From a virus (lineage: Duplodnaviria; Caudoviricetes): a stretch of 64,000 nt of DNA. Below, piece after piece: positions 51,894 through 64,000 of the stretch. Positions within the stretch are counted from its first letter, which is position 1, and every line of letters begins with the position of its first letter. The notes under the pieces were generated by a model, which was given only the letters and a program-made list of their open reading frames with translations, ran no database searches and was not told the DNA's origin. Made by a program: the position numbers and the translations under genes. The stretch is taken from the IMG/VR virus record IMGVR_UViG_3300007280_000474; one strand, written 5' to 3'.

Positions 51894-52781
51894 CTATTTG
51901 CCAATTGCATTACCATATATGTGTGCATGCACTCGGCTAGTATAATAATACCCACGTTGTATTGCTTCGTCGGCAATCATCGCTTCAGTCATCTTAAGAC
52001 CTTCTACTGTGCCTCCAACGCCCATAATCCAGACAGGCCAATCAACACCAACATTACGAAACGCTTCTGTGTGTTGTTCAACTTCATCCCAACTCTCCTC
52101 ACTTCCATTTACAACAAATTTAAGTTGTCCTTTATTAGATACTTCTGCATACTTGCCTACAACTTCAGGCTTAATTGCTTTCTTAGGTTGTTCACCTGCT
52201 GTACTCCATAACTTAGGCGACACACTCCAATACCATTCTCTGCCTACCCAACGTGAGTAATTTATTTGTACCCACTCGCTGAATTCATCTGTAATAGGCT
52301 TTGTGCCATTTGTTTCTACAGTGACTCGCATTGGCATGTTACCTCTGCTTTTAAATTCATCGATAACTGCACTCATACCTGGTTGTGTTTTCTTAAGCAT
52401 TGGCTCGCCGCCAGTAAACACCATATCGATATTCTGGCCTGTTTTATCATGTACAAAAGTACCTGTGGGCAAAAGTGCTGTAAGTTCATCTACAGCCTCT
52501 TCGACAGTTCGATCTGTGATCAAGTGCTTGTATTTCTTTGCCCATGTATAACTACTATCACAGCCTTTGCTGAACACAGGCAACTCTTCTACTACTTTAA
52601 TTCTAGAGATATCAATCTCTTCATAAGGTAGTTCCCAACTGTCTGGGTTTGTAGGATCGTCTTGCCCGAATCCATTACACTGTAAATTACACAAGAAGAA
52701 ACGCATCCACAGACTAGGAATACCTACGTAGGCTCCTTCTCCTTGCGGACTGTAGAATGTTTCACTGTATTGTAAATTCAT
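51894..52781 (-). CDS. queE: 7-carboxy-7-deazaguanine synthase (QueE-like radical SAM)
   Basis: ETFYSPQGEG..G.PS...R..CNLQC...GCDS, TGGEP, ETNGT, SVSPKL, RVH. Confidence 0.85.
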   Translation of the reverse strand: MNLQYSETFYSPQGEGAYVGIPSLWMRFFLCNLQCNGFGQDDPTNPDSWELPYEEIDISRIKVVEELPVFSKGCDSSYTWAKKYKHLITDRTVEEAVDELTALLPTGTFVHDKTGQNIDMVFTGGEPMLKKTQPGMSAVIDEFKSRGNMPMRVTVETNGTKPITDEFSEWVQINYSRWVGREWYWSVSPKLWSTAGEQPKKAIKPEVVGKYAEVSNKGQLKFVVNGSEESWDEVEQHTEAFRNVGVDWPVWIMGVGGTVEGLKMTEAMIADEAIQRGYYYTSRVHAHIYGNAIGK

Positions 52782-52802
52782 AATTATACACCAATTTGCA
52801 TT

Positions 52803-52831
52803 ATTATACGCTCTTTAATAGTTAAAGTCAA
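52803..52831 (-). promoter_or_regulatory. Sigma70-type promoter (queE)
   Basis: TTGACT-N17-TATAAT. Confidence 0.85.
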
Positions 52832-53091
52832 GTCCATTTTCCAGTAAGTTTCATGTGTGCGATGTCTTCCCATGTTGCCCATTCAACTCTACGAGAACTA
52901 TCTACCGGCAGTTGAGGTAGTTCTATTCTCATCTTTACAGTTCTAGTATAAGCATAACGCAACCAAATACGTTGTTTGGTTACACTAGTCTTTGGCCACA
53001 GTACAAACTTTCTCTTCCATTCACTTACTTCTAAGTTATCTGGCGAATGTAAAAAGTCTGCAACACTATTACCTTCTCCTGGTATTGGCAC
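52828..53091 (-). CDS. Hypothetical protein
   Basis: ORF in operon; Trp-rich. Confidence 0.5.
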   Translation of the reverse strand: MPIPGEGNSVADFLHSPDNLEVSEWKRKFVLWPKTSVTKQRIWLRYAYTRTVKMRIELPQLPVDSSRRVEWATWEDIAHMKLTGKWT

Positions 53092-53502
53092 TTATAGTTT
53101 ACCTTCTGCTCTTAACTGCTCTCTAATTTTTGTAGCACTAATGCTGTGGATATCCTCACCGAGATCGTGTTCAGTAAAAGTATAACCCACGCCACGCCCA
53201 TAACTAATATCAACGATATTAGGCACAAGCATAATAATAAAATCTTCACCTTCTACAAAACCCTCTTTTGATAATGCTTCGCTGATGTTTGCAAAAACTG
53301 TGTCGACATCAAATGGATTATCATTCTGCGCCGCAGTTCTGCCACCGCCTGCATCTTCGCCTACAATGCCGCCTACGTTGCGTACTTGTATTGCTACTTG
53401 CCCTGTTTCCAGCAATGCTTTTTTAAACAGTGCTGTGTGTCCGTCATGCCAGGGTTGCCATCTACCTAGCATTTGAGTTGTTGGCTTAGTCCAATCAAAC
53501 AT
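53092..53502 (-). CDS. Cytidylyltransferase-like (HxGH nucleotidyltransferase)
   Basis: GRWQPWHDGH, ISATKIR. Confidence 0.8.
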   Translation of the reverse strand: MFDWTKPTTQMLGRWQPWHDGHTALFKKALLETGQVAIQVRNVGGIVGEDAGGGRTAAQNDNPFDVDTVFANISEALSKEGFVEGEDFIIMLVPNIVDISYGRGVGYTFTEHDLGEDIHSISATKIREQLRAEGKL

Positions 53503-53512
53503 ATCTTACTCC

Positions 53513-54229
53513 TTAATCAACAAAGGCACGCTCTAACATAAAGTCGCCTGCCTCGCCTGTGTTACCCTCAATCCACCCGGATTCAGAGAATTGCTCTCTA
53601 CATTGTCTGTTTAGGTCTGGAGAGCCACAAACCATAACTGAATCTCGCCCTAGTGTTAACCCACCTGGGAGAAACTCCTCTATATGATCCCAGAACCTTC
53701 CCTTCCTGGGATAGTCTTCTCGGGTCACACTTTCAATATACCTAAAAGGTAAATCAGTCTCTAGTAATGCAAGTTCGGGCCTATATGATAACTCAGCCTT
53801 CTCTCTTACCGTGTGGAACAAATAAACATTCTTGTACTGCTCATATGTTAGATAGTCTCTAGCAATACTCATAAATGGTGCAATGCCTGTTCCTGTGCTT
53901 AACATTACCAAGTTCTCAGTTGGTTTCAAATAATCAATAACCAAACTACCTGTACACTTTGGCTTCATTAATACTTCATCGCCTGGTTGTATGTGCTGTA
54001 GCCTACTTGTTAAAGGACCGTCGGGTACTTTAATACTTAAAAACTCTAAGTGGTCATCGTAATTTGTGCTGACTACACTGTATGCTCTATAGATAGGACG
54101 TGGGTCAGCATCTAATCCTATCATTGCAAACTCGCCGTTTTTAAATCTAAAACTACGATCTCTTGTTGTTTTAAAACTAAAAAGTCTATCGCTATAATGT
54201 TGTACCTCTAGTACTTTTTCTTTTAACAT
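53513..54229 (-). CDS. fpr: Ferredoxin/flavodoxin-NADP+ reductase
   Basis: RAYSV, VPDGPLTSRL, TGTGIAPF, CGS, ERAFVD. Confidence 0.9.
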   Translation of the reverse strand: MLKEKVLEVQHYSDRLFSFKTTRDRSFRFKNGEFAMIGLDADPRPIYRAYSVVSTNYDDHLEFLSIKVPDGPLTSRLQHIQPGDEVLMKPKCTGSLVIDYLKPTENLVMLSTGTGIAPFMSIARDYLTYEQYKNVYLFHTVREKAELSYRPELALLETDLPFRYIESVTREDYPRKGRFWDHIEEFLPGGLTLGRDSVMVCGSPDLNRQCREQFSESGWIEGNTGEAGDFMLERAFVD

Positions 54230-54236
54230 AATACCT

Positions 54237-54599
54237 CTATGTTGTCGATAAAATTACAATTACCACATAAGTTAAAAAGTGTGCTAATTGATCTACTCCG
54301 TGTGTTACCCAGTATAATTGATCTGCTGGTCCTAGTTTCTTACTCTTCCAAAAATTGCTTTTAATATAGTCTACGTGGTAATGTACAACTGTGTCTAGTA
54401 TTCCTAAAAGTGCCGCCCAAAGAACAGGTATACCACACGACGCTAACACGACCCATGTAAAAAGTCCATGCAGTTCGCTATGTGCCATTCCTTTCCAGTG
54501 TCCATAGGTGCCTTTGTGTTTAATCATCCAACTGTATTGCATAAAGTAATCAGCGAATACATGCTTGATCATTAGTAAAGTGATAATTGTCAGTTCCAT
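54237..54599 (-). CDS. DUF3307-like membrane protein
   Basis: KH..ADY..Q, HS..H, HYHVD..K, DQLAH. Confidence 0.7.
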   Translation of the reverse strand: MELTIITLLMIKHVFADYFMQYSWMIKHKGTYGHWKGMAHSELHGLFTWVVLASCGIPVLWAALLGILDTVVHYHVDYIKSNFWKSKKLGPADQLYWVTHGVDQLAHFLTYVVIVILSTT

Positions 54600-54600
54600 A

Positions 54601-54924
54601 TCAATCACCCTCTTTGACAAATACTCCGTCAACCATTCGACCCTTTCGGTCCTTTATATCATTATAAGCCACTTCCAAACAATCTGTAAGGCTTATGTTG
54701 TTTCTCTCTGCAATGTTAATCAACACAACCAACATGTCACCAATATCATCTTTGATGTCTTTGCCTTTGCAAATATTATCGCTCAGTTCACCCATCTCTT
54801 GAATTAGTTTTGCTAGTTGGTCTTTGTCTGTAGCACCTTCGATTAAGTTCCTTGCATGATGCCAGTGCTTAACATGCTCAATGGTAGCAATCAGTCTTGT
54901 GCTTTCTAAGTTTTCAACTGTCAT
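54601..54924 (-). CDS. MazG-like nucleotide pyrophosphohydrolase
   Basis: QLAKLIQEMGEL...DDIGDMLVVL...AYNDIKDRKG. Confidence 0.8.
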   Translation of the reverse strand: MTVENLESTRLIATIEHVKHWHHARNLIEGATDKDQLAKLIQEMGELSDNICKGKDIKDDIGDMLVVLINIAERNNISLTDCLEVAYNDIKDRKGRMVDGVFVKEGD

Positions 54925-55427
54925 TCTACATCTCCATTTAAACTTGCTAGAATGTGATGTGGGTCAAGGTCTCCCACTTCTGCAAGAAGTGCTTCGTAAA
55001 CAGCAACATGTAAGTCACTGCTTTCGAAATACTTTGCTCCTTGTGCTAAATCTTTATAGATATCTCTGATGACGTTGGTGAGTCCTACGTTGTACACTTC
55101 ATCAAAGTTAAGTGCTTCTGGTTTTAATGTATGACCGTAACTTATTAGTCCAAAGAAAACTACATCGTTTACACTAATAGTTTCTATGTCTAAGTTAATA
55201 TCATCGCCAGTGTTTAGTAATGTAATACCTTCCTTGTATGAACTTTGTTTTGCATTATCTGCAATGCAGTCAATACATTCAAATACTTCATCAACGGAAA
55301 CAGGAAAACGATTGCAAATCCAATCTAAACCTTTTCTATCAATTACTGCGTCTGTGATATCCTCTACTGGAACAGCACTGCTAGATACAACCAGGATATT
55401 ATTGTGACCTCGTGTTTCAATACTCAT
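54921..55427 (-). CDS. Hypothetical protein (weak DUF433-like N-terminus)
   Basis: ORF in operon; VPVEDI...FPVSVDEVFECI. Confidence 0.5.
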   Translation of the reverse strand: MSIETRGHNNILVVSSSAVPVEDITDAVIDRKGLDWICNRFPVSVDEVFECIDCIADNAKQSSYKEGITLLNTGDDINLDIETISVNDVVFFGLISYGHTLKPEALNFDEVYNVGLTNVIRDIYKDLAQGAKYFESSDLHVAVYEALLAEVGDLDPHHILASLNGDVE

Positions 55428-55437
55428 TGATCCCCCG

Positions 55438-56115
55438 TTACTTAGACGAATTCACAATGTTCATAAACTCATTACGAACTGCTGGATCATGCTTAAAGCA
55501 TCCACCTAGTTTGCTAGTAATGGTTGATGAACCGGTATCTTCAACTCCCCTACTCTTAACACAATAATGTTGAGCATCAACAATAACGCCAATGTTCTCA
55601 GTGTCGAGTATATATGACAACGCATGGTAAACTTGTTCAGTTAACCTTTCTTGTATTTGAGGTCTTTTAGCAAAGTACTCAACTACTCTGTTAAGTTTAC
55701 TAAGACCTAATACTTTTTCATTTGGAATATATGCCACTGTAGCAACACCATCAATAACAACAAAGTGATGTTCGCAGTTACTTTGAACGTTGATGTTACG
55801 CTCAATAACCATCTCATCATACTTCATCTTATTGTCTACTGCTGTACACTTTGGAAATGCTTCATAGTCGAGACCCCAAAAGATTTCGTTTACATACATT
55901 TTTGCAACTCTTTTAGGTGTGTCTACTAAACTATCATCAGTAAGATCAAGTTCAAGCAGTTTCATAATTTCTACAAAATGCTTTTCGATTGAATCAATTT
56001 TATCTGTACGTGATAGACCATTGCTTACTACTGGAGTTTCTACTCCAACAGATACTAGGTGTTCGTGGACTCTGCGACCCAGATCAGGGTCAGTTTTAGT
56101 TTTATTATAAGCCAT
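55438..56115 (-). CDS. folE: GTP cyclohydrolase I
   Basis: DTPKRVAKM, SNCEHH, GLSKLNR, RPQIQERLT, HYCVKSRG. Confidence 0.95.
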   Translation of the reverse strand: MAYNKTKTDPDLGRRVHEHLVSVGVETPVVSNGLSRTDKIDSIEKHFVEIMKLLELDLTDDSLVDTPKRVAKMYVNEIFWGLDYEAFPKCTAVDNKMKYDEMVIERNINVQSNCEHHFVVIDGVATVAYIPNEKVLGLSKLNRVVEYFAKRPQIQERLTEQVYHALSYILDTENIGVIVDAQHYCVKSRGVEDTGSSTITSKLGGCFKHDPAVRNEFMNIVNSSK

Positions 56116-56180
56116 TTGCTTTCTCCTTCCTAACGCGGATTAATAAGTTAAATTGTTTTGCTACCTTTGTGTAGCAATTA

Positions 56181-56188
56181 TATTTATC
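56181..56188 (-). promoter_or_regulatory. Late promoter GATAAATA upstream of folE
   Basis: TATTTATC on + strand. Confidence 0.5.
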
Positions 56189-56402
56189 AAGAATCAAGTT
56201 TAATTATACCGTTTTCCCAATTTTCAGCAACGTCTTCAGCATAGTGAATACTTTTGCCTGGGACCTCCCTGCTTTCTCTCAATGTGTCATCTTCGAAGAG
56301 ATCAATCACATAAGTTGTGTCTGGACCTCTACTGCCATTGCCACCGTATGGCTCTTTACGAATTACTGCTGAACGACTCATTCCCTCACTCCTTGTTGTC
56401 AA
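56187..56402 (-). CDS. Small hypothetical protein
   Basis: KSIHYAEDVAENW motif; ORF in operon. Confidence 0.55.
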   Translation of the reverse strand: MTTRSEGMSRSAVIRKEPYGGNGSRGPDTTYVIDLFEDDTLRESREVPGKSIHYAEDVAENWENGIIKLDS

Positions 56403-56892
56403 AGTTCCACCATTGCTCGTATGGGAATACTACCCACGGATTGTTATCTGGTGTTAGTTCCCTTGCATAAAAGTCTACGTTTTGATAATTGCTTTGTGAC
56501 TTGCTTAACAGTGTAGCCACTTTAAGATTTACATCATTGCCAACTTCTAATGCGTGATCGTATATGACATCTTCAATTGCTTGAAGTGTAGTGCCAGTAT
56601 CGTTTATGTCATCAACTAACAACACCTTTCTATCAATATACTTCTCTAGTATGTGTTCGAGTGTTTTAATGTCCTCAAACTCTCCATCACGGGTCTGCCA
56701 ATTGAAACCTCTAAATGGAACATCAAAGTAATGGCTAAACATTACTCCAATTAGATAACCGCCTCTACCAGGACCAATTACTACGTCTGGTTTGTAAGCA
56801 TCGACAGACATGTCCCTTACTATACTTTGGCAGTCATTAACTAAGTTCTCATAGGAATAGAACAGTTTTTTCACTTCTGCTTTTTCTCCCAT
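56386..56892 (-). CDS. Type I phosphoribosyltransferase (xanthine/guanine PRT-like)
   Basis: GPGRGG, VLLVDDINDTGTT PRPP loop, WVVFPYE. Confidence 0.85.
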   Translation of the reverse strand: MGEKAEVKKLFYSYENLVNDCQSIVRDMSVDAYKPDVVIGPGRGGYLIGVMFSHYFDVPFRGFNWQTRDGEFEDIKTLEHILEKYIDRKVLLVDDINDTGTTLQAIEDVIYDHALEVGNDVNLKVATLLSKSQSNYQNVDFYARELTPDNNPWVVFPYEQWWNFDNKE

Positions 56893-57839
56893 TCAAATGA
56901 GTGTTCGATTATTTCATCTAGTCCAAATACTGGAGTCCAACCTAGCTCTTCTCTTGCCTGTGTAATGTCAGCATAAGTCTTAGGTGGATCACCTGCTCTG
57001 CGATCTACGATACTGTATTTTGGGGTAATACCAGTAACACGCTCAAAGGCTTCGATGACCTGAAGCACACTGTTAGGAGTCGACTGTCCTAAGTTAAATG
57101 TGTTACTGGTATTTTTATCTTCGAGGTAATTAAGAGCGGCTAGATGTGCAACTGCTATGTCGTAGACATGCGTATAATCTCTTTCGCATGTTCCGTCTGT
57201 GGTATCATAGTCATTGCCGAAGACTTGAATCTCTTCATCATTAAGCACGGCTCTGCATATAATTGGCACCAAGTGACTAGCAGGCTTTTGAGTGTAGCCA
57301 TGTTCTAGTTCAGGGTCGGCACCTGCGGCATTAAAATATCGAAGATTAACAAATTTCAATCCGTATGCTCGGTCGTAGTCTGGTAGCATATCTTCTACCA
57401 TCTTTTTAGTAAGACCATATGCACTAACTGGTGCAGTTGGTGTGTCCTCAGTAGTTGGGAAGTTTTGTATATCCCCATACACACTGCTTGAACTACTAAA
57501 AATAAAATGTTTAACACCTGCTTCTACAGCACTGTTCAACAGTGAAATAGTATTACCTACGTTGTTCTCATAGAACACACCAGGCTCTGTTACACTTCTT
57601 CCAACCTCATGATCGGCTGCAAAGTGCATAATAGCATCTGGTTGTGTAAGTTTGATCACACCTTTCATTTGATGGTTGTCTAAATCAAATGGATACTGTG
57701 ATACTCCAGGTATTTCTTTTTTAACTCTATCAATATTAATAACATTATGACCTGCGTCTACAAGTAAGCGACATACCATGCCACCAATGTATCCACTGCC
57801 TCCTGTAACTAATACTGTCTTTGCTTCTTGATTATTCAT
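56871..57839 (-). CDS. galE: UDP-glucose 4-epimerase
   Basis: TGGSGYIG, HFAA, SSSSSVYG, YGLTK, LRYFNAAGA, DGTCERDYTHV, RRAGD. Confidence 0.9.
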   Translation of the reverse strand: MNNQEAKTVLVTGGSGYIGGMVCRLLVDAGHNVINIDRVKKEIPGVSQYPFDLDNHQMKGVIKLTQPDAIMHFAADHEVGRSVTEPGVFYENNVGNTISLLNSAVEAGVKHFIFSSSSSVYGDIQNFPTTEDTPTAPVSAYGLTKKMVEDMLPDYDRAYGLKFVNLRYFNAAGADPELEHGYTQKPASHLVPIICRAVLNDEEIQVFGNDYDTTDGTCERDYTHVYDIAVAHLAALNYLEDKNTSNTFNLGQSTPNSVLQVIEAFERVTGITPKYSIVDRRAGDPPKTYADITQAREELGWTPVFGLDEIIEHSFEWEKKQK

Positions 57840-59046
57840 ATTTTTGCCTTGCTACATGCTTTCTGAAACCCCAATTATCTCTGAGCCATCTAGCACCTTT
57901 GCCTTCCAGTATGTCCATTGTCCTATCAATAGTGCCATTCTGGTAGTCGCTAATTTTACCAATATTATACTTGGAAAGATCGTTTGTGTCAATACTTTTT
58001 AACATATTATCTAGTTTTTGTACTGCGTCATCGATGCTCCAAGGTACATACATATGGTGTCCGTTGTTTGCAAACACTTCTGGGAAACTTCTGTAAGCAG
58101 GATATAAGGTAAGTGTACCCATAGTGTCTGCTTCGCTTACAGTGTTGCTTACCCAATCTTGTAACGCACAATTAAATAGCACTTTACTATCTGCTAACAA
58201 ATTGTAGTAGTCATTCTTTTTAAGACCTGTGTAAACTCTAAAGTTTGCAGTCTTTGTCTTGCCTAAATCCCATGCATCTTGTAAGTCCATTGCACGTTTT
58301 ACATACCGTGGATCATTGCTTTTAAGTTCTGGGTGTCCACAAAATATAGCAAATTCAACATCTGGATCTATTTTGTAATAGGCTTCTGCTAAATCCATAT
58401 AAAAGTGTGGTTGCTTCTCGTCGTCCCAACGTGCGGCAAAGCCTACACGATTTGATCTATCATGTAGTAATGCAGGAGCAGGAACACGTTCCTTAACTTC
58501 TTCTTTACCATATGGTAGACCTGAAACATAAATTGGACACTTGAATCCTGCAATTCTTAGGTGTGCAACAAATTCTTCACTTGCAACAATAATACCATCT
58601 ACAAACTCATCAACCATTTGCTCATATCTACGCATCCAACTAAACATGCCTTCTCTGATTAAGAAGTCATCTGGGTCAGTAGTTTGTGCAAGGAACCTAA
58701 GGTATACTTTGGGTCTGTATTCCTTTGGTGATTGATCCATAATGTAAGGAAGGCATTCAAGTCCTGGTGTAAACATATCTTCATAAAAGATAACATCGTC
58801 ACTACTAATCTCGCCATTCTTCATTTTCTGTACAAGACTCATAGTCTGACTTAAACTGTAATAACTACGTCCATGAGCATCCAACACACTACCAGTTACG
58901 ATAGCCTTACTGTTGTCCAGTTCCTCACCAGTGATAATCTCATAGTCAATACCACGTGCTTTGAATACACGTTCATTCCAATCTTGCAACTGCAATGTAT
59001 AACGTGCCTCATAACTTTCGAGGCCCATGTAATATAGTTTACGCAT
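57832..59046 (-). CDS. GT-B fold glycosyltransferase (start moved to ATG 59046)
   Basis: FAARWDDEKQP, QDWVSNTVSEA, YRSFPE. Confidence 0.7.
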   Translation of the reverse strand: MRKLYYMGLESYEARYTLQLQDWNERVFKARGIDYEIITGEELDNSKAIVTGSVLDAHGRSYYSLSQTMSLVQKMKNGEISSDDVIFYEDMFTPGLECLPYIMDQSPKEYRPKVYLRFLAQTTDPDDFLIREGMFSWMRRYEQMVDEFVDGIIVASEEFVAHLRIAGFKCPIYVSGLPYGKEEVKERVPAPALLHDRSNRVGFAARWDDEKQPHFYMDLAEAYYKIDPDVEFAIFCGHPELKSNDPRYVKRAMDLQDAWDLGKTKTANFRVYTGLKKNDYYNLLADSKVLFNCALQDWVSNTVSEADTMGTLTLYPAYRSFPEVFANNGHHMYVPWSIDDAVQKLDNMLKSIDTNDLSKYNIGKISDYQNGTIDRTMDILEGKGARWLRDNWGFRKHVARQKYE

Positions 59047-59188
59047 CTTTATCTTTCTCCTCAGATTGTGTATTGTCAGGTAACTCGCCGTAATCAACAA
59101 CTTGCGTTACTTCTTCGTCTAAGTTTCCTAAGTTACTGTTATTTAGATCTTTAGAATCTTTATCAGTAGTTTTTTTCGATTTTTCCAT
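59039..59188 (-). CDS. 49-aa acidic low-complexity protein (not in ORF track)
   Basis: MEKSKKTTDKD...EEKDKDA; AAGGA RBS; fills the gap. Confidence 0.4.
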   Translation of the reverse strand: MEKSKKTTDKDSKDLNNSNLGNLDEEVTQVVDYGELPDNTQSEEKDKDA

Positions 59189-59200
59189 CTCAATATCCTT

Positions 59201-60103
59201 TTATAAATTTAGTAGATCAGCATAATGTTCGGCAGTCTGTTTAGCAGTCTTTGGACCTAAGTGCCCAGGAATGCTATCATTAAACATATTGCCACCTTTA
59301 TAACAATCTCTAGCATCATCGATCTGGTCTATGATATAACATCCTAATAGATCAGCAGTGTTCTTACTCCATGTGCCTTCCACATAAGAAGTCTTACCTT
59401 CCCACATGTTCTGAATAGAATTGATCAAACACATTGCCTGAGTATTTCTATTATGTTCCCAATCATCCAAATCAAAACCAAACAATGATCTTAACATGTT
59501 AAAGTTTTTTCTTTGGTATGGCTCATGGTTAAGGTGCCCGGTTACATATCTATTCACACCGTAATAAGATTCACGTGAGAATTCAGTCCACTGGTTTATA
59601 ACACCGAGTGGTTTCTTACATTGCTTATATAGTGATAGATTATTAACATAACTAAAATGTATAGATGTGCCTGCTTTACCTAAATTAATTACCGGCACAC
59701 CTAGTGCTTGTGACAGATAATAGCATATACGCTCATCCTCTGCTAATCCTGTTCCCATTAATTCTGAACATCCAAACATTACCACACTATTGGACCAATC
59801 TACATCGTCTAGGTCAATGCATCTATAGCCCTGCTTGTTAAATGTGTATGTAACTTCTTTGTTTCTGTAATGCCAATCCTCAGGCATTAACTCCAAATTT
59901 GCTACATACCTATCAAGTGTGTCATTTGAATAAAACTTATGAGTACCTGGCAATTCCACATCATCATTTTGATCTACAAATGCTGGATATTGGTTAGCCT
60001 TTATGAGTTGTGCATCAGTACCATTAAAAGTTGAGTGCGGCAAAAAATTGCCATCTTCAATACTTTGTAGTATACTTTTCCTATCCATCAGTGTTTCTTC
60101 CAT
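59201..60103 (-). CDS. SGNH-like protein, family B-related (4 of 4)
   Basis: YTFNKQGYR, FGCSELMG, NLGKAGTS, PGHLG. Confidence 0.55.
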   Translation of the reverse strand: MEETLMDRKSILQSIEDGNFLPHSTFNGTDAQLIKANQYPAFVDQNDDVELPGTHKFYSNDTLDRYVANLELMPEDWHYRNKEVTYTFNKQGYRCIDLDDVDWSNSVVMFGCSELMGTGLAEDERICYYLSQALGVPVINLGKAGTSIHFSYVNNLSLYKQCKKPLGVINQWTEFSRESYYGVNRYVTGHLNHEPYQRKNFNMLRSLFGFDLDDWEHNRNTQAMCLINSIQNMWEGKTSYVEGTWSKNTADLLGCYIIDQIDDARDCYKGGNMFNDSIPGHLGPKTAKQTAEHYADLLNL

Positions 60104-60159
60104 CTACACTCTTCTTAGTATAATTGTTGGTTCGTTCTGCTCTGCAATACGCAACATAA

Positions 60160-60339
60160 TTACATATTGTTTTTCTTGTCTTGGATTTCCTTACGTCTTT
60201 CTTTTGTAAGTTTACCAAGTTCACCTAAAGCCTTACGAGCTCTAGTTGCCGCGGCTTTAACGCCACCGTTTTCGAACTTATCGTTCTCTGCTAAGTACTG
60301 CTCGAATAGAGCTTTAATTTGTAAATGATTCTCTGTCAT
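60160..60339 (-). CDS. Histone H1-like Hc1 family protein (start ATG 60339)
   Basis: ENDKFENGGVKAAATRARKALGEL.KL.KE.RKEIQ; AGGAG RBS. Confidence 0.75.
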   Translation of the reverse strand: MTENHLQIKALFEQYLAENDKFENGGVKAAATRARKALGELGKLTKERRKEIQDKKNNM

Positions 60340-60359
60340 TACTTTCTCCTTTTTAATTG

Positions 60360-60746
60360 TTATGCCCCAGGCATGTAATTGGTGGGGTATTCCATTTCGC
60401 AACCGTTTTCATTATCTTCGGCTACTGAAATCTTTAACCAGCGATCAGGATACATTGCTTGTATATGCTCTGCTAGTTCATCTGCGATCATCTCGCATGA
60501 TTTGTAATCAAGATCGAGAGTCGCTTTATCATATAGCCTCTCCATCCATCTTTTAAACTGTATAAATTCTACATCTCTGTCTTCATGAAACACTTCAAGC
60601 CATACCTTAAAGTGAAAGATGTGTCTGTGCGGATATCCTAAAAAGGATACATCATCCCAATCACCTGTTGCTAGATTAGGATCTTCCAAGGCGGCAGGGT
60701 ACTTGTGAATACCCTCCTTGTTAAACGTTACCCAGATACTCCTCAT
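60360..60746 (-). CDS. QueD/PTPS-like T-fold protein
   Basis: EGIHKY...HRHIFH...VEFIQFK...SCEMIA...VAEDNENG. Confidence 0.7.
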   Translation of the reverse strand: MRSIWVTFNKEGIHKYPAALEDPNLATGDWDDVSFLGYPHRHIFHFKVWLEVFHEDRDVEFIQFKRWMERLYDKATLDLDYKSCEMIADELAEHIQAMYPDRWLKISVAEDNENGCEMEYPTNYMPGA

Positions 60747-60919
60747 AGTGTTACTGTCTCCTCAGCAACCTCAGTAACGGGTTGAGTTACATAACGCATT
60801 GGTCTACGCATAGCGGCTACCCTAGCCTTTCTAATAGCATTACGTTCTGCTTTCTTCTTATGGTTCTTTCTGTTCTGTCTATCTCTGAACTGTTGAACCT
60901 TTTGTTTTACTTTTCTCAC
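60743..60919 (-). CDS. 58-aa highly basic protein (not in ORF track)
   Basis: GTG start after GGAGG; MRKVKQKVQQFRDRQNRKNHKKKAERNAIRKARVAAMRR...; 4-nt overlaps at both ends. Confidence 0.55.
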   Translation of the reverse strand: MRKVKQKVQQFRDRQNRKNHKKKAERNAIRKARVAAMRRPMRYVTQPVTEVAEETVTL

Positions 60920-61101
60920 GACCAGCCTCCGTCAATTGTTTCCATTACTTCATTCATATGACCTAGCAACTGTGTGATAGGCTCATCATAATCACCAATA
61001 TCGTAATCAACACTATCTTGCTCTTCAAACATAGCCTTGATCTGATCTCCGTACTGAACAATCTGTTCTAGTTGTTCTCTCATTTCATCTGATATTGCCA
61101 T
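60916..61101 (-). CDS. Small acidic hypothetical protein
   Basis: GGAGG RBS; TAATG overlap. Confidence 0.6.
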   Translation of the reverse strand: MAISDEMREQLEQIVQYGDQIKAMFEEQDSVDYDIGDYDEPITQLLGHMNEVMETIDGGWS

Positions 61102-61511
61102 TACGCCTCCTTGCTAGGATCCCATATAGTCAAGTTCTTAGTCTTAAGTCTATTGACTACAATTTTATACCTGCTTTGTTCCTCTTGCCATTCCTTTAAC
61201 CATTTATGTCCGTCACGCTCTGCGTCAACAAAAATTGCATTAGTAAATGCTAATGGTAATAAGATAGCACAATGTATAACAATACTTGCTACTGTGTTGT
61301 AGCCAAACCAACCTAAGTAGTTGGCTGCTAAAAATCCAAAGAACACACTCCACACAACAAACAATACTAACATAAAGTATGTCTGTAGGCTAGGGTCTGG
61401 GATATACTTTAATGGATTGTATCTCACATCCATCACACGCCTCCAGCCACTCACAAGACTCATGACTGTTCTTCTGAATAGACTTGGCTTTTTAATTGCT
61501 GGTTCAATCAT
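61101..61511 (-). CDS. Two-TM membrane protein
   Basis: VMDVRYNPLKYIPD followed by two hydrophobic helices. Confidence 0.65.
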   Translation of the reverse strand: MIEPAIKKPSLFRRTVMSLVSGWRRVMDVRYNPLKYIPDPSLQTYFMLVLFVVWSVFFGFLAANYLGWFGYNTVASIVIHCAILLPLAFTNAIFVDAERDGHKWLKEWQEEQSRYKIVVNRLKTKNLTIWDPSKEA

Positions 61512-61521
61512 TTTTTCTTCC

Positions 61522-61617
61522 TTACTCAACATGGTTCCTTATATATTCTTTGATCACATGCATTCCATATGATGCCCAAGTTATTACTACTAGACTCCAA
61601 AACAATATCTCTATCAT
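61522..61617 (-). CDS. 31-aa membrane peptide (not in ORF track)
   Basis: MIEILFWSLVVITWASYGMHVIKEYIRNHVE; tiles the gap. Confidence 0.4.
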   Translation of the reverse strand: MIEILFWSLVVITWASYGMHVIKEYIRNHVE

Positions 61618-61784
61618 TCATCTGAATCCTTTTTAATAGGATTGTCGTAGTAATCATGTGTGCCTGCTCTGTAACGTGCTTTCTTCTCACTTACAAGAAC
61701 ACTGCTCATGTATGCAAAATATCCAGCAGACAAAAAGATAACTACTCCAAATATAAAATTAAGAATCTCCATCAAGATAGTCAT
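61614..61784 (-). CDS. Small membrane protein (not in ORF track)
   Basis: MTILMEILNFIFGVVIFLSAGYFAYM...; ATGA overlap. Confidence 0.45.
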   Translation of the reverse strand: MTILMEILNFIFGVVIFLSAGYFAYMSSVLVSEKKARYRAGTHDYYDNPIKKDSDE

Positions 61785-61950
61785 CTAGCATCTCCTGTAT
61801 TTCGTCTGGTAGTTTGGCTCCCATTGCTACTGCAAAGTCTAATACAGTGATAAAGAACTCTTGCAAGTCTTCTTCACTGTTAAAACCTTCAATGTCAATG
61901 GTGGACTCTATGTTAGTCCTGCCACGTTTACCTGCTAATTTAATTTGCAT
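61759..61950 (-). CDS. Small hypothetical protein
   Basis: ATG 8 nt after the -10 box. Confidence 0.55.
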   Translation of the reverse strand: MQIKLAGKRGRTNIESTIDIEGFNSEEDLQEFFITVLDFAVAMGAKLPDEIQEMLDDYLDGDS

Positions 61951-61958
61951 AGTTCTTT

Positions 61959-61987
61959 ATTATACGATTATAACGATTCAATGTCAA
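61959..61987 (-). promoter_or_regulatory. Sigma70-type promoter
   Basis: TTGACA-N17-TATAAT, perfect consensus. Confidence 0.85.
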
Positions 61988-62409
61988 CCTTTCTTTTGCT
62001 TGCTAAGTTTTTCTAAACTTAGTTTATCTTTAAGACTCATTAAGTATGCTGCACCTGCTAAAATAAAGATAGCACCTGCTTCTGCAAATAGCCCAATTGG
62101 TTCCATCTCTTTACTGTGCAACACAATAAGTCTACATAATGCTGTAATAGCAATGATAATAGGTAGTGTTACAGGAATACGTTCTGTGCTGTAAAATGCT
62201 CCAATCATTGCAACAACCTCTGCAAAGATAAACAACATAAACAAGTCTGCTAGTACAACTGATCTAGCAATAAACATACCAAATACATAGTCGCCAATGG
62301 CAAATATAGTACATACGCCAATCAATGCAATAATTGCACGTTCTGTTAACACTGTGGTCCAATGCATCTTATCGTCCTTCTTTAGTAAACTTTCAAATAA
62401 TTCTTTCAT
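61984..62409 (-). CDS. psiE: Phosphate-starvation-inducible PsiE family membrane protein
   Basis: LADLFMLFIFAEVVAMI..FY...RIPVTLPIIIAITALCRLIV. Confidence 0.8.
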   Translation of the reverse strand: MKELFESLLKKDDKMHWTTVLTERAIIALIGVCTIFAIGDYVFGMFIARSVVLADLFMLFIFAEVVAMIGAFYSTERIPVTLPIIIAITALCRLIVLHSKEMEPIGLFAEAGAIFILAGAAYLMSLKDKLSLEKLSKQKKG

Positions 62410-62582
62410 ACTATATGGTTCTCCCTGCTTTTCTTTGCCGTGTGTACAATACCACTTTTAGTTGTGTAGGGTTCTTTGCTTATACCCTTTGTACCTGCAT
62501 TGTCATTTATAAGTTGAAATAAAAATACAAACATTGCAATTACTGCTGGTAATAATATTGCTAATAAAATAACTCCGTCCAT
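62406..62582 (-). CDS. Small membrane protein (not in ORF track)
   Basis: MDGVILLAILLPAVIAMFVFLF...; GAGGA RBS; ATGA overlap with psiE. Confidence 0.5.
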   Translation of the reverse strand: MDGVILLAILLPAVIAMFVFLFQLINDNAGTKGISKEPYTTKSGIVHTAKKSRENHIV

Positions 62583-62586
62583 GTCC

Positions 62587-62769
62587 TCACCAATTGTGTA
62601 TTACATTTGCCATAATAAAGAAACATGTCATAAAGTTAACCCCCACAATAACAGTGCGGAGCAAAGCCACATAATTATCATAGGGTTCAGTTTTCTCATC
62701 TGAGAAACCACCTAATGCATATTTCCAAATAGTCCATACCTTACGCACTTTCGTACCTATCAAAGACAT
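62587..62769 (-). CDS. Small membrane protein
   Basis: WTIWKYALGGFSDEKTEPYDN...IHNW. Confidence 0.6.
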   Translation of the reverse strand: MSLIGTKVRKVWTIWKYALGGFSDEKTEPYDNYVALLRTVIVGVNFMTCFFIMANVIHNW

Positions 62770-63793
62770 GGTTAATTACATTGTTAACTCTAACGAAGTG
62801 AGCACACTTGGGCATATCCTTTATACGAGTTGCACCAATGTATGTACATGTACTTCTTACTCCGCCGAGTATTTGTTCTACTGTATTGCTTACAGGACCT
62901 CTATCCGGCATAACAATAGTCTTGCCTTCTGTGCCTCTGTAGCCGTCCTTTCTAGCACCATGTGTATCAAGTGCTGTTTGCGAACTCATGCCGTAGAACA
63001 CTCTGTTACCATCTACTAGTTCTGCTTCACTTTCTTCATGTCCTGCTAACATACCTCCTAGCATTACAAAGTGAGCACCGCCTGCTAATGCTTTTGCTAC
63101 ATCGCCTGGTTGTGTACAACCACCGTCAGCAATTATGTGTCCACCAACTCCATTAGCGGCATCGGCACAATCCATAATTGCACTAAACTGTGGTACGCCT
63201 ACACCTGTTTGTGTTCTTGTAGTACAAACACTGCCTGGACCAATACCAACTTTGACAACGTCAGCACCCTTTATAATCAATTCTTCAGTCATATTAGGAG
63301 TGACAACATTGCCGGCGATTATAATCTTATCAGGGTATTCTTCTCTGATACGTTGTACAAAGTCGATATAGGATTGATGATAGCCGTTAGCCACATCAAT
63401 TGTGATTGCTGGAATGTCTGGCCATGATTGCATTACTTGTTTTAGTGTTTGGTAATCAGTTGCATTGTTATCCCAAAGTGCACCAGTGCCAACGCATGCT
63501 GAAATGTACTTCAGTTCTAAGCCACTGCCCATTGCTTCTTTCCACTGTTCAAAGGTGTAGTGCTTTCTGATAACAGTCATCATCTTAAACTTCTGTAAGG
63601 TCTTAGCCATACTAAATGTTCCTACACCATCCATGTTACTAGCCATAATAGGCACATAACTTAGTGAACGCCCGCTGTTTCTAAACGAAAACTCACGCAT
63701 AATGTTTACGTCTTTCCTAGAGCTCAAGGTAGAGCGTTTAGGTTGTAGCAATACATCAGCATAATCTAAATGTATATTGTAGTCGATTCTCAT
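62741..63793 (-). CDS. guaC: GMP reductase (start moved to ATG 63793)
   Basis: DVLLQPKRSTLSSR, SNMDGVGTF, IDVANG, GIGPGSVCTTR, ADGG, FYGMSS, EGK, GGVRSTCTYIGA; no CBS domains. Confidence 0.92.
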   Translation of the reverse strand: MRIDYNIHLDYADVLLQPKRSTLSSRKDVNIMREFSFRNSGRSLSYVPIMASNMDGVGTFSMAKTLQKFKMMTVIRKHYTFEQWKEAMGSGLELKYISACVGTGALWDNNATDYQTLKQVMQSWPDIPAITIDVANGYHQSYIDFVQRIREEYPDKIIIAGNVVTPNMTEELIIKGADVVKVGIGPGSVCTTRTQTGVGVPQFSAIMDCADAANGVGGHIIADGGCTQPGDVAKALAGGAHFVMLGGMLAGHEESEAELVDGNRVFYGMSSQTALDTHGARKDGYRGTEGKTIVMPDRGPVSNTVEQILGGVRSTCTYIGATRIKDMPKCAHFVRVNNVINHVFDRYESA

Positions 63794-63972
63794 ACAAATT
63801 GTCCTATTAAAAACATTGAAAGTAACATAAAGCCTAACACACATACCTGAATTATTGACGCCCATGCTACTTGCTTCATTGGGTGCATTTCTACTAGTTT
63901 ATCTAGTGCGTCTACATCAGGACTTAGGTTAACTGCCTGTAGTACTTTCTCTTCTGTTGATTTCTTATTCAA
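63790..63972 (-). CDS. Small membrane protein
   Basis: C-terminal TM helix; ATGA overlap with guaC. Confidence 0.55.
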   Translation of the reverse strand: MNKKSTEEKVLQAVNLSPDVDALDKLVEMHPMKQVAWASIIQVCVLGFMLLSMFLIGQFV

Positions 63973-64000
63973 TCTATTACCTCGTCCTTAGTGTACTTTG

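Follow-up and report, generated by a model that had tools for sequence, protein, structure and literature searches.

A probable 7-deazaguanine DNA-modification module with conserved glycosyltransferase, epimerase and purine phosphoribosyltransferase genes in an uncultured marine giant phage

The stretch analyzed here (hereafter, the window) comprises 64,000 nt of the IMG/VR record IMGVR_UViG_3300007280_000474, which belongs to an uncultured marine giant phage of the Caudoviricetes, and it carries at positions 51894-63865 a single run of minus-strand genes centered on 7-deazaguanine synthesis. This run probably constitutes most of a DNA-modification module, which would replace genomic guanine with a 7-deazaguanine base after replication. 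Comparison with related phages revealed that the conserved set of the module consists of a DpdA-like transglycosylase, a glycosyltransferase (GT), DpdL, UDP-glucose 4-epimerase (GalE), a purine phosphoribosyltransferase (PRTase), FolE and QueE. The conserved GT, GalE and PRTase are new to systems of this kind, as in the literature outside subscription journals we found no paper discussing them, nor any in which a PRTase or a glycosyltransferase is connected with the DpdA clusters of phages.

The related loci were obtained by scanning IMG/VR with the QueE-like protein of the window, which gave 266 matches; the best 80 of them (66-79 % identity to the query) were used, and core and accessory genes were counted in 59 of these 80, namely those with at least 9 kb of sequence upstream of QueE. 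DpdL, the GT, GalE and FolE were each present in all 59 loci, the PRTase in 57, the DpdA-like gene in 49 and a small 169-aa protein in 46; MazG, GMP reductase (GuaC) and the Fpr-like reductase occurred in 11, 9 and 5 loci, respectively. These 80 loci represent a single related clade and the counts are consequently not independent, which lessens the weight they lend to the proposed module. A first-pass annotation of this DNA, prepared from the sequence itself, had described a 7-deazapurine locus to which the PRTase and the glycosylation genes belong. Both parts of that description were borne out, since in the related phages the PRTase, the GT and GalE stay together with FolE, DpdL and QueE. In addition, five large contigs of relatives were examined, including G001 (91 % complete), G002, G003 and G004, and a set of 50,697 phage records was searched by tblastn for cultured counterparts; by megablast, no cultured phage matched the stretch. 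Proteins of the window were compared with Pfam, PHROGs and NCBIfam, their profiles were searched against PDB, and pairwise profile comparisons were made by hhalign. The genes of the run, with the family matches on which their naming is based and the number of loci where each was found, are as follows.

51894-52781, minus strand: QueE-like radical SAM enzyme of the 7-carboxy-7-deazaguanine synthase type (phrog_2076, E 7.7e-51)
52828-53091, minus strand: open reading frame (ORF) of 87 aa with no known function, not conserved (weak PHROG match; 4/80 loci)
53092-53502, minus strand: small nucleotidyltransferase/kinase-like protein, accessory (phrog_10255 'kinase', E 1e-18; weak cytidyltransferase PHROG; 1/80 loci)
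53513-54229, minus strand: Fpr-like FAD/NAD(P)-binding reductase, accessory (PF00175 and PF00970; NF008178, 121 bits at a cut-off of 390; 5/59 loci)
54237-54632, minus strand: DUF3307 membrane protein, accessory (PF11750, E 4.3e-9; phrog_2470; 5/59 loci)
54601-54924, minus strand: MazG-like nucleotide pyrophosphatase, accessory (PF03819; phrog_1992, phrog_715; 11/59 loci)
54921-55427, minus strand: conserved protein of 168 aa (no match in Pfam, PHROG, NCBIfam; 32/59 loci)
55438-56115, minus strand: GTP cyclohydrolase I (FolE), first step of deazaguanine synthesis (NF006824, 320.4 bits vs cut-off 202; 59/59 loci)
56187-56402, minus strand: small conserved ORF of 71 aa (no family match; 39/59 loci)
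56386-56892, minus strand: type I purine (6-oxopurine-like) PRTase (PF00156, 53.1 bits vs 26.3; 57/59 loci)
56871-57839, minus strand: GalE (TIGR01179, 343.5 bits vs 262.3; 59/59 loci)
57832-59100, minus strand: GT-B / GT4-like glycosyltransferase, ORF of 422 aa (sub-threshold PF13524, 18.2 bits vs 25; 59/59 loci)
59201-60103, minus strand: protein of 300 aa, not conserved (no match in Pfam, PHROGs, NCBIfam; 1/80 loci)
60360-60746, minus strand: DpdL, a QueD/PTPS-fold paralogue of 128 aa, as judged by homology to phiST CGPG_00067 and the motif LxxxHRHxF (59/59 loci)
60916-61532, minus strand: pair of short ORFs, 61 and 143 aa long (no family match; 17/59 and 24/59 loci)
61984-62409, minus strand: PsiE-family membrane protein, accessory, probably unrelated (PF06146, E 2e-18; 6/59 loci)
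62741-63865, minus strand: GuaC, accessory nucleotide-pool gene (NF003470, 480.2 bits vs 397; 9/59 loci)
63969-64000, minus strand: window edge; to judge from the homologous contig L087, three genes follow past base 64000, encoding a conserved protein of 174 aa, a 72-aa product and a TGT/DpdA-like protein

Here PTPS stands for 6-pyruvoyltetrahydropterin synthase and TGT for tRNA-guanine transglycosylase. The genes for the QueE-like protein, FolE, the purine-type PRTase, GalE, the GT, MazG, the Fpr-like reductase and GuaC were thus all found where the first-pass annotation had placed them, with the GT itself reaching only a sub-threshold Pfam match, and the position of PRTase, GalE and GT between FolE and a gene called queD-like was confirmed. 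The 'SGNH-like' gene of the same annotation (59201-60103) fared differently, having no matches in the three family databases and recurring in one of the 80 loci.

The putative transglycosylase is encoded, to judge from a near-identical contig and from related loci, just past the end of the window. A search for exact matches to a 60-base segment taken from the window end identified a 2.9-kb metagenome contig, L087. It is 92.85 % identical to window positions 62978-63998 and encodes, beyond GuaC, the 174-aa protein, the 72-aa ORF and the C-terminal 387 residues of a large TGT/DpdA-like protein, the stop of which falls near window-equivalent position 64692, about 0.7 kb past the window end. The complete protein, first read in locus L085, comprises 520 aa. 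Its gene was present in all five large contigs and in 51 of the 80 loci, and in the relatives it consistently follows PolB and a clamp-like gene, an order that parallels the pol, clamp and DpdA genes of Enterobacteria phage 9g. The motif DSGGFQ and a second, later Asp were invariant in 60 sequences of the family; the DSGGFQ Asp and the later one are presumably the catalytic Asp residues of TGT. When a profile of these 60 sequences was run against PDB, 36 of the 39 marginal matches were tRNA-guanine transglycosylases, colinear over DSGGFQ and the motifs that follow it. The profile aligned with DpdA3 of Cellulophaga phage phiST at 77.5 % hhalign probability (E 1.9e-5), the corresponding hidden Markov model (HMM) matched gp123 of Acidovorax phage ACP17 with E 8.7e-10 (that gp123 is the 'dpdA' of PMC10516641 is assumed), and the lead given for the protein by a language-model Atlas was likewise TGT. 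Judging from its sequence, we regard the protein as very likely a divergent DpdA-like transglycosylase. The first large search with its profile listed only close, unnamed relatives, and the family now counts at least 5,844 proteins in public data, falling into 1,110 clusters at 50 % identity.

Several observations weigh against this assignment and hence against the module as a whole. The DpdA-like gene was read in relatives and not in the window's own DNA past base 64000. The Pfam TGT family PF01702 gave no match in any of the five relatives' genomes or to the protein itself, and matched one of the 60 family members with E 0.0058; no PHROG match was obtained for the protein either. The PDB matches mentioned above are statistically marginal (E 0.33-1.5), the comparison with a three-sequence DpdA3 alignment reached 53.5 % only, and with the DpdA of phage 9g hhalign returned 0.7 %, that is, no detectable similarity. 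PF01702 likewise failed to match phiST DpdA3 and ACP17 gp123 by hmmscan, and searches of PDB with the single DpdA-like protein or with a 17-sequence profile gave no matches. As for the remark of the first-pass annotation that no queC, tgt or dpdA was to be seen in the window, it is correct in that no tgt/dpdA gene lies inside, but the DpdA-like gene lies immediately outside, in the 93 %-identical contig and in the relatives.

Beside the DpdA-like gene there is invariably a conserved gene for a protein of 169-174 aa (L085 3845-4354; L087 992-1516, window-equivalent ~63969-64493; ACP17 gp122, L108 6306-6704). Apart from the 46 well-covered loci it occurs in ACP17; it has no relative in Pfam, PHROG or PDB and may be a further part of the module.

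A further enzyme of the proposed module is DpdL. This protein was described as a QueD paralogue and proposed to decarboxylate 7-carboxy-7-deazaguanine (CDG) to 7-deazaguanine in phage phiST, the DNA of which contains 2'-deoxy-7-deazaguanosine (dDG; m/z 267.109); in DpdL the motif LxxxHRHxF replaces CxxxHGH of QueD, so that the catalytic Cys of QueD/PTPS is gone (Hutinet et al. 2023, PMC10516641). The gene at 60360-60746, formerly labeled queD-like, is, on its homology to the phiST protein and its signature motif, that of DpdL and not of canonical QueD, its decarboxylase activity being the published proposal. Homologs of the window protein were found by tblastn in 28 of the 50,697 phage records, phiST among them (E 1e-6), where the match position corresponds to CGPG_00067. 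A 14-sequence alignment of the family matched phiST DpdL with 98.7 % hhalign probability (E 2.4e-16, 109 columns), and the respective HMM matched CGPG_00067 with E 5.7e-16. LxxxHRHxF is represented in the window protein by L36, H40-R41-H42 and F44, and H40, R41, H42 and F44 were invariant in all 14 aligned sequences. In the family scans the protein matched an unnamed PHROG only. In phiST, DpdL has a MazG neighbor (CGPG_00068). The relation of DpdL to QueD was harder to trace: hhalign gave 5.6 % with the QueD of the relatives and 3.3 % with that of phage 9g, no PTPS was among the PDB matches of the DpdL profile, and PTPS was annotated in 20 % of one Atlas cluster near DpdL. Because the direct comparisons failed or were weak, this link relies on the HHpred result of PMC10516641 and on the Atlas lead. 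A further point against the proposed pathway is that co-expression of dpdL with the matching dpdA from ACP17 or phiST in Escherichia coli yielded no dDG, with respect to which the authors suggested a possible need for further enzymes that are not yet known (PMC10516641).

Candidates for the enzymes expected upstream of DpdL are present, though not all in canonical form or place. Against the NCBIfam QueE models the window QueE-like protein scored at most 41 bits, the best-scoring equivalog having a cut-off of 240, and its cluster motif is split (CX3C-X38-C) instead of the contiguous CX3CX2C; the split form was found in all 80 related loci as well as in Pseudomonas jumbo phage PA5oct and cyanophage BUCT-ZZ01, and the QueE of ACP17 has the contiguous one. 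FolE occurs in two forms among the relatives, those of a few loci, such as L030 (90 %) and L037 (79 %), being near the window's and most others about 35 % identical to it (median 35.5 %, n=74), which suggests that the gene was swapped within an otherwise conserved module. Canonical PTPS/QueD was not detected in the window by tblastn; it is encoded elsewhere in the genomes of G001, G003 and G004, i.e., in three of four marine relatives, and PA5oct has two copies. QueC was not found in G001, 91 % complete, and so its absence, reported for the window by the first-pass annotation, can be upheld at the scale of a nearly complete relative. Weak QueC-family matches in G001 and G004 span only the first 60 model positions; the sole such match in G001 (L089 922-1866) was rejected, as it is an NAD synthetase by PHROG.

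Proceeding from the established functions of these families, FolE, canonical QueD located elsewhere in the relatives' genomes and the QueE-like enzyme would convert GTP to CDG. DpdL would then turn CDG into 7-deazaguanine by decarboxylation, a reaction that is a published proposal rather than an in vitro observation, and the divergent DpdA-like transglycosylase, to go by its homology and its context next to the clamp and PolB, would exchange this base into DNA. The guanine released by the exchange would most likely be converted to GMP by the PRTase, which would pull the exchange forward and return guanine to GTP and FolE, and GuaC, where present, may drain GMP to IMP. Finally, the GT4-type GT together with GalE might place a hexose, from UDP-Gal or UDP-Glc, on deazaguanine or on an intermediate, this being the least certain step.

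A quite different product could be imagined from some of the same genes. FolE, the PTPS-fold DpdL and the GT, lying in one cluster, might form a glycosylated pterin, in which case the purine genes would represent a separate salvage function; this alternative had been left standing in the first-pass annotation. Cyanobacteria make pterin glycosides, and BUCT-ZZ01 infects a cyanobacterium. Yet a QueE-like enzyme and the DpdA-like gene belong to the same module, DpdL is devoid of the catalytic Cys of QueD/PTPS and belongs to a family linked, in phiST, with dDG (PMC10516641), and modified guanine was reported for the DNA of PA5oct (PA5oct preprint). We consider a pterin glycoside pathway highly improbable.

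The PRTase deserves closer consideration, as its distribution bears directly on the fate of guanine. Its profile retrieved from PDB the Pyrococcus purine PRTase 1vdm (E 2.6e-22), followed by Sulfolobus GpT-2 and GpT-1 and then by Hpt/Gpt enzymes, and the acidic motif binding phosphoribosyl pyrophosphate (PRPP) was invariant among the relatives. The window protein fell below the cut-offs of the NCBIfam HGPRT and XPRT equivalogs, so that its base specificity is not fixed by family; some metagenomic relatives are named hypoxanthine PRTase by JGI. Homologs were detected in 21 of the 50,697 phage records, distributed among PA5oct-like phages (11), the phiST group (5), Flavobacterium phages immuto (4) and BUCT-ZZ01 (1), all of which are deazaguanine phage groups. 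In immuto_2-6A the gene stands between QueE and FolE in the published fdPreQ1 cluster with DpdA, DpdN and QueF; in phiST it is 18 kb away from the deazaguanine genes, near ribonucleotide reductase. Immuto makes a preQ1 derivative and phiST makes dDG, both with complete replacement of guanine (PMC10516641), and immuto possesses neither DpdL nor this GT. Since the PRTase is common to phages with different final bases, the molecule they share should be guanine or CDG rather than any one final base, which favors a role in guanine disposal or salvage. Most likely, the PRTase takes up the guanine that is excised, acting as its sink or salvaging it. Against this role, complete replacement of guanine is known in Campylobacter phage CP220 (PMC10516641) and no PRTase homolog was found by tblastn in Campylobacter phage records, so that the PRTase is not needed for full replacement.

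The same enzyme could, alternatively, act on the modified base itself. Using PRPP, the PRTase would convert CDG or 7-deazaguanine into a 7-deaza-GMP analog, as TubE and ToyH do, which after phosphorylation and reduction would be built into DNA by PolB, with MazG and GuaC depleting the guanine nucleotides and the DpdA-like protein only patching the guanine left over or having another role. The embedding of the PRTase in the deazaguanine clusters of four phage groups agrees with such a route, as does the adjacency of MazG and DpdL in phiST, MazG being present in the window as well. The Streptomyces tubercidin and toyocamycin clusters offer a precedent, since in them the CDG/preQ0 core genes are accompanied by a GMP reductase homolog and a PRTase of the PF00156 family (10.64898/2026.04.15.718813). 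Furthermore, cells infected with CP220 were reported to contain the ADG nucleoside in their cytoplasm (cited in PMC10516641), and the PRTase carriers phiST and immuto replace guanine completely (PMC10516641).

These arguments are opposed by the content of the module. The DpdA-like gene is kept in it wherever coverage allows, whereas the tubercidin/toyocamycin clusters contain no TGT/DpdA according to the detection rule of the preprint (10.64898/2026.04.15.718813), and the other parts characteristic of the latter, namely a UbiD-type decarboxylase, PurA/PurB homologs and a dedicated phosphatase, were not found here; neither was a dedicated kinase seen in the core. The closest solved relatives of the PRTase are ordinary 6-oxopurine PRTases, and a ribonucleotide analog would be expected to load the RNA pools as well. 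MazG was present in 11 of 59 loci, and GuaC, on which the tubercidin/toyocamycin analogy of the first-pass annotation rests, proved to be accessory: in G001 and G004 a distance of about 60 kb separates it from the module, in G003 it is part of the module, and G002, PA5oct and the window's five closest contigs lack it. GuaC was also considered as a marker of deazaguanine phages and rejected, because homologs are carried by 63 assorted phage records, including unrelated phages. As the DpdA-like gene belongs to this very module (49/59 loci, five of five large relatives) and, in the 93 %-identical contig, is reached some 0.7 kb past the window end, the DpdA-independent route suggested earlier finds no support, and synthesis at the nucleotide level appears unlikely to us.

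It is more difficult to decide what the GT and GalE do. The GT of BUCT-ZZ01, 55 % identical to that of the window, passes the Pfam thresholds narrowly (PF13692, 28.3 bits vs 27; PF00534, 26.5 vs 26.4), and the GT profile gave weak GT4 matches in PDB (E ~0.1). The alignment of the relatives has a conserved start and conserved motifs. The listed TTG start of the window ORF is probably wrong, as all relatives start at an internal ATG about 23 codons in, giving a protein of ~399 aa. As to GalE, 11 of its 71 matches over all 80 loci were below 32 % identity. Homologs of the GT occur in 18 of the 28 DpdL-bearing records, the five other records with a match being all weak and partial; the gene stands beside DpdL or within ~3 kb of it in Phosso, PA5oct, ACP17, X1, BUDD, BCSR5 and BUCT-ZZ01, the hosts of which are alpha-, beta- and gamma-proteobacteria and cyanobacteria. 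That the GT and GalE are so closely wedged between DpdL and the transglycosylase in several phage lineages unrelated to each other suggests that they take part in this pathway. A GT-B enzyme that uses a UDP-sugar on a free 7-deazapurine base has a precedent in HuiG of huimycin biosynthesis, albeit only as an analogy, for a secondary metabolite and not for DNA (10.64898/2026.04.15.718813).

Two facts speak against a sugar on the base: the phiST group, with proven dDG, has no such GT, and plain 7-deazaguanine offers no obvious hydroxyl as a glycosyltransferase acceptor. They are readily accommodated if the GT and GalE are unrelated to DNA and serve to glycosylate a glycan or a protein, be it of the phage or of the host, being merely lodged in a conserved early-gene block, with the base remaining plain dDG or its 7-carboxy counterpart dCDG. 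A UDP-glucose dehydrogenase and a carbamoyltransferase seen in the window would fit this explanation. It is countered by the recurrence of the GT next to DpdL in phages of such diverse hosts, and by the failure of ACP17 dpdA and dpdL alone to give dDG in E. coli (PMC10516641). We consider independent roles of the GT and GalE rather unlikely, and a sugar carried by the DNA base a possibility to be entertained with caution, which we would still put below an even chance.

Cultured phages with parts of the module provide the most informative comparisons. In PA5oct (Wroclawvirus) the block comprises the clamp gp170, DpdA-like gp168, GT gp167, DpdL gp166, the small ORF gp165, the truncated SDR gp164, PRTase-like gp163 and QueE-like gp162, followed by a virion protein and an exonuclease. 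The gene order agrees with that of the module described here, and the DpdA-like protein and DpdL are 49 % and 59 % identical, respectively; in PA5oct, however, FolE is missing from the block, the GT is of a short type, the GalE-like gp164 is truncated and there is no GuaC. The product of gp164 (L098 12407-12925) has 172 aa and resembles GalE in its N-terminal part only, with 26 % identity over 109 residues, while the gene occupies the position of GalE in the marine phages. The DNA of PA5oct resists five restriction enzymes, from which its authors inferred modified guanine; of the genes concerned, the preprint, in the part available, names only gp162 and the PTPS gene gp230, and not the transglycosylase, DpdL, GT or PRTase (PA5oct preprint). 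ACP17 encodes QueD, FolE, the homolog of the 169-aa protein, the DpdA-like protein, GT (gp124), DpdL and QueE, and BUCT-ZZ01 encodes QueE, PRTase, QueD, FolE, a second GT, the DpdA-like protein, DpdL and GT. The second GT of BUCT-ZZ01 is a group-1-like protein of 447 aa (L112 10918-12261), its gene being flanked by those for FolE and the DpdA-like protein. In the main text of PMC10516641 there is no mention of 'phosphoribosyl', 'glycosyl' or 'sugar'; its supplements list DpdA and DpdL per phage and may include some of the phages considered here.

Among the systems with a known product, the closest is DpdA3/DpdL of phiST, which makes dDG. It shares with the window-type module FolE, QueE, DpdL with LxxxHRHxF, a divergent transglycosylase beside polymerase genes, MazG nearby, the absence of QueC and a related PRTase, in its case elsewhere in the genome. 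It differs in the size of the transglycosylase (259 aa vs ~520 aa here) and in the lack of DSGGFQ in the DpdA3 alignment. The window-type module, in turn, is distinguished by GT4 and GalE between the transglycosylase and DpdL, by a PRTase inside it and by the split QueE motif. Phage 9g, with archaeosine in its DNA, resembles the module in the succession of polymerase, clamp, DpdA, FolE, QueD and then QueE, but has Gat-QueC and canonical QueD, and no DpdL, GT or PRTase in its first 50 kb, and its DpdA is not detectably similar by hhalign.

Bringing the above together into one specific proposal, the phages studied here, along with PA5oct, ACP17 and BUCT-ZZ01, might contain a sugar-bearing 7-deazaguanine in their DNA, formed by DpdL, the split-motif QueE, GT4, GalE and transglycosylases of a new DpdA subfamily, with the PRTase removing guanine so as to let the exchange go to completion and with the GT being the enzyme that was missing from the E. 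coli test of the ACP17 genes. We put this full scheme forward as a tentative and, in its entirety, doubtful one; for guanine replacement as such our confidence is that stated at the outset.

7-Deazaguanine modifications shield phage DNA against attack by nucleases, those of restriction included, and the mapping of their chemistry is still in progress. The form described here is abundant, with a DpdA-like family of the size given above and with the GT and GalE in every well-covered locus and the PRTase in nearly every one, and it is open to testing, since parts of the module are present in three phages in culture and one of them, PA5oct, is reported to have a modified guanine. If the proposed role of the PRTase is true, it would show how phages cope with the large amounts of free guanine liberated by base exchange. 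If the sugar is indeed attached to the base, sugar-bearing 7-deazaguanine would represent a new class of purine modification and the first glycosylated purine hypermodification.

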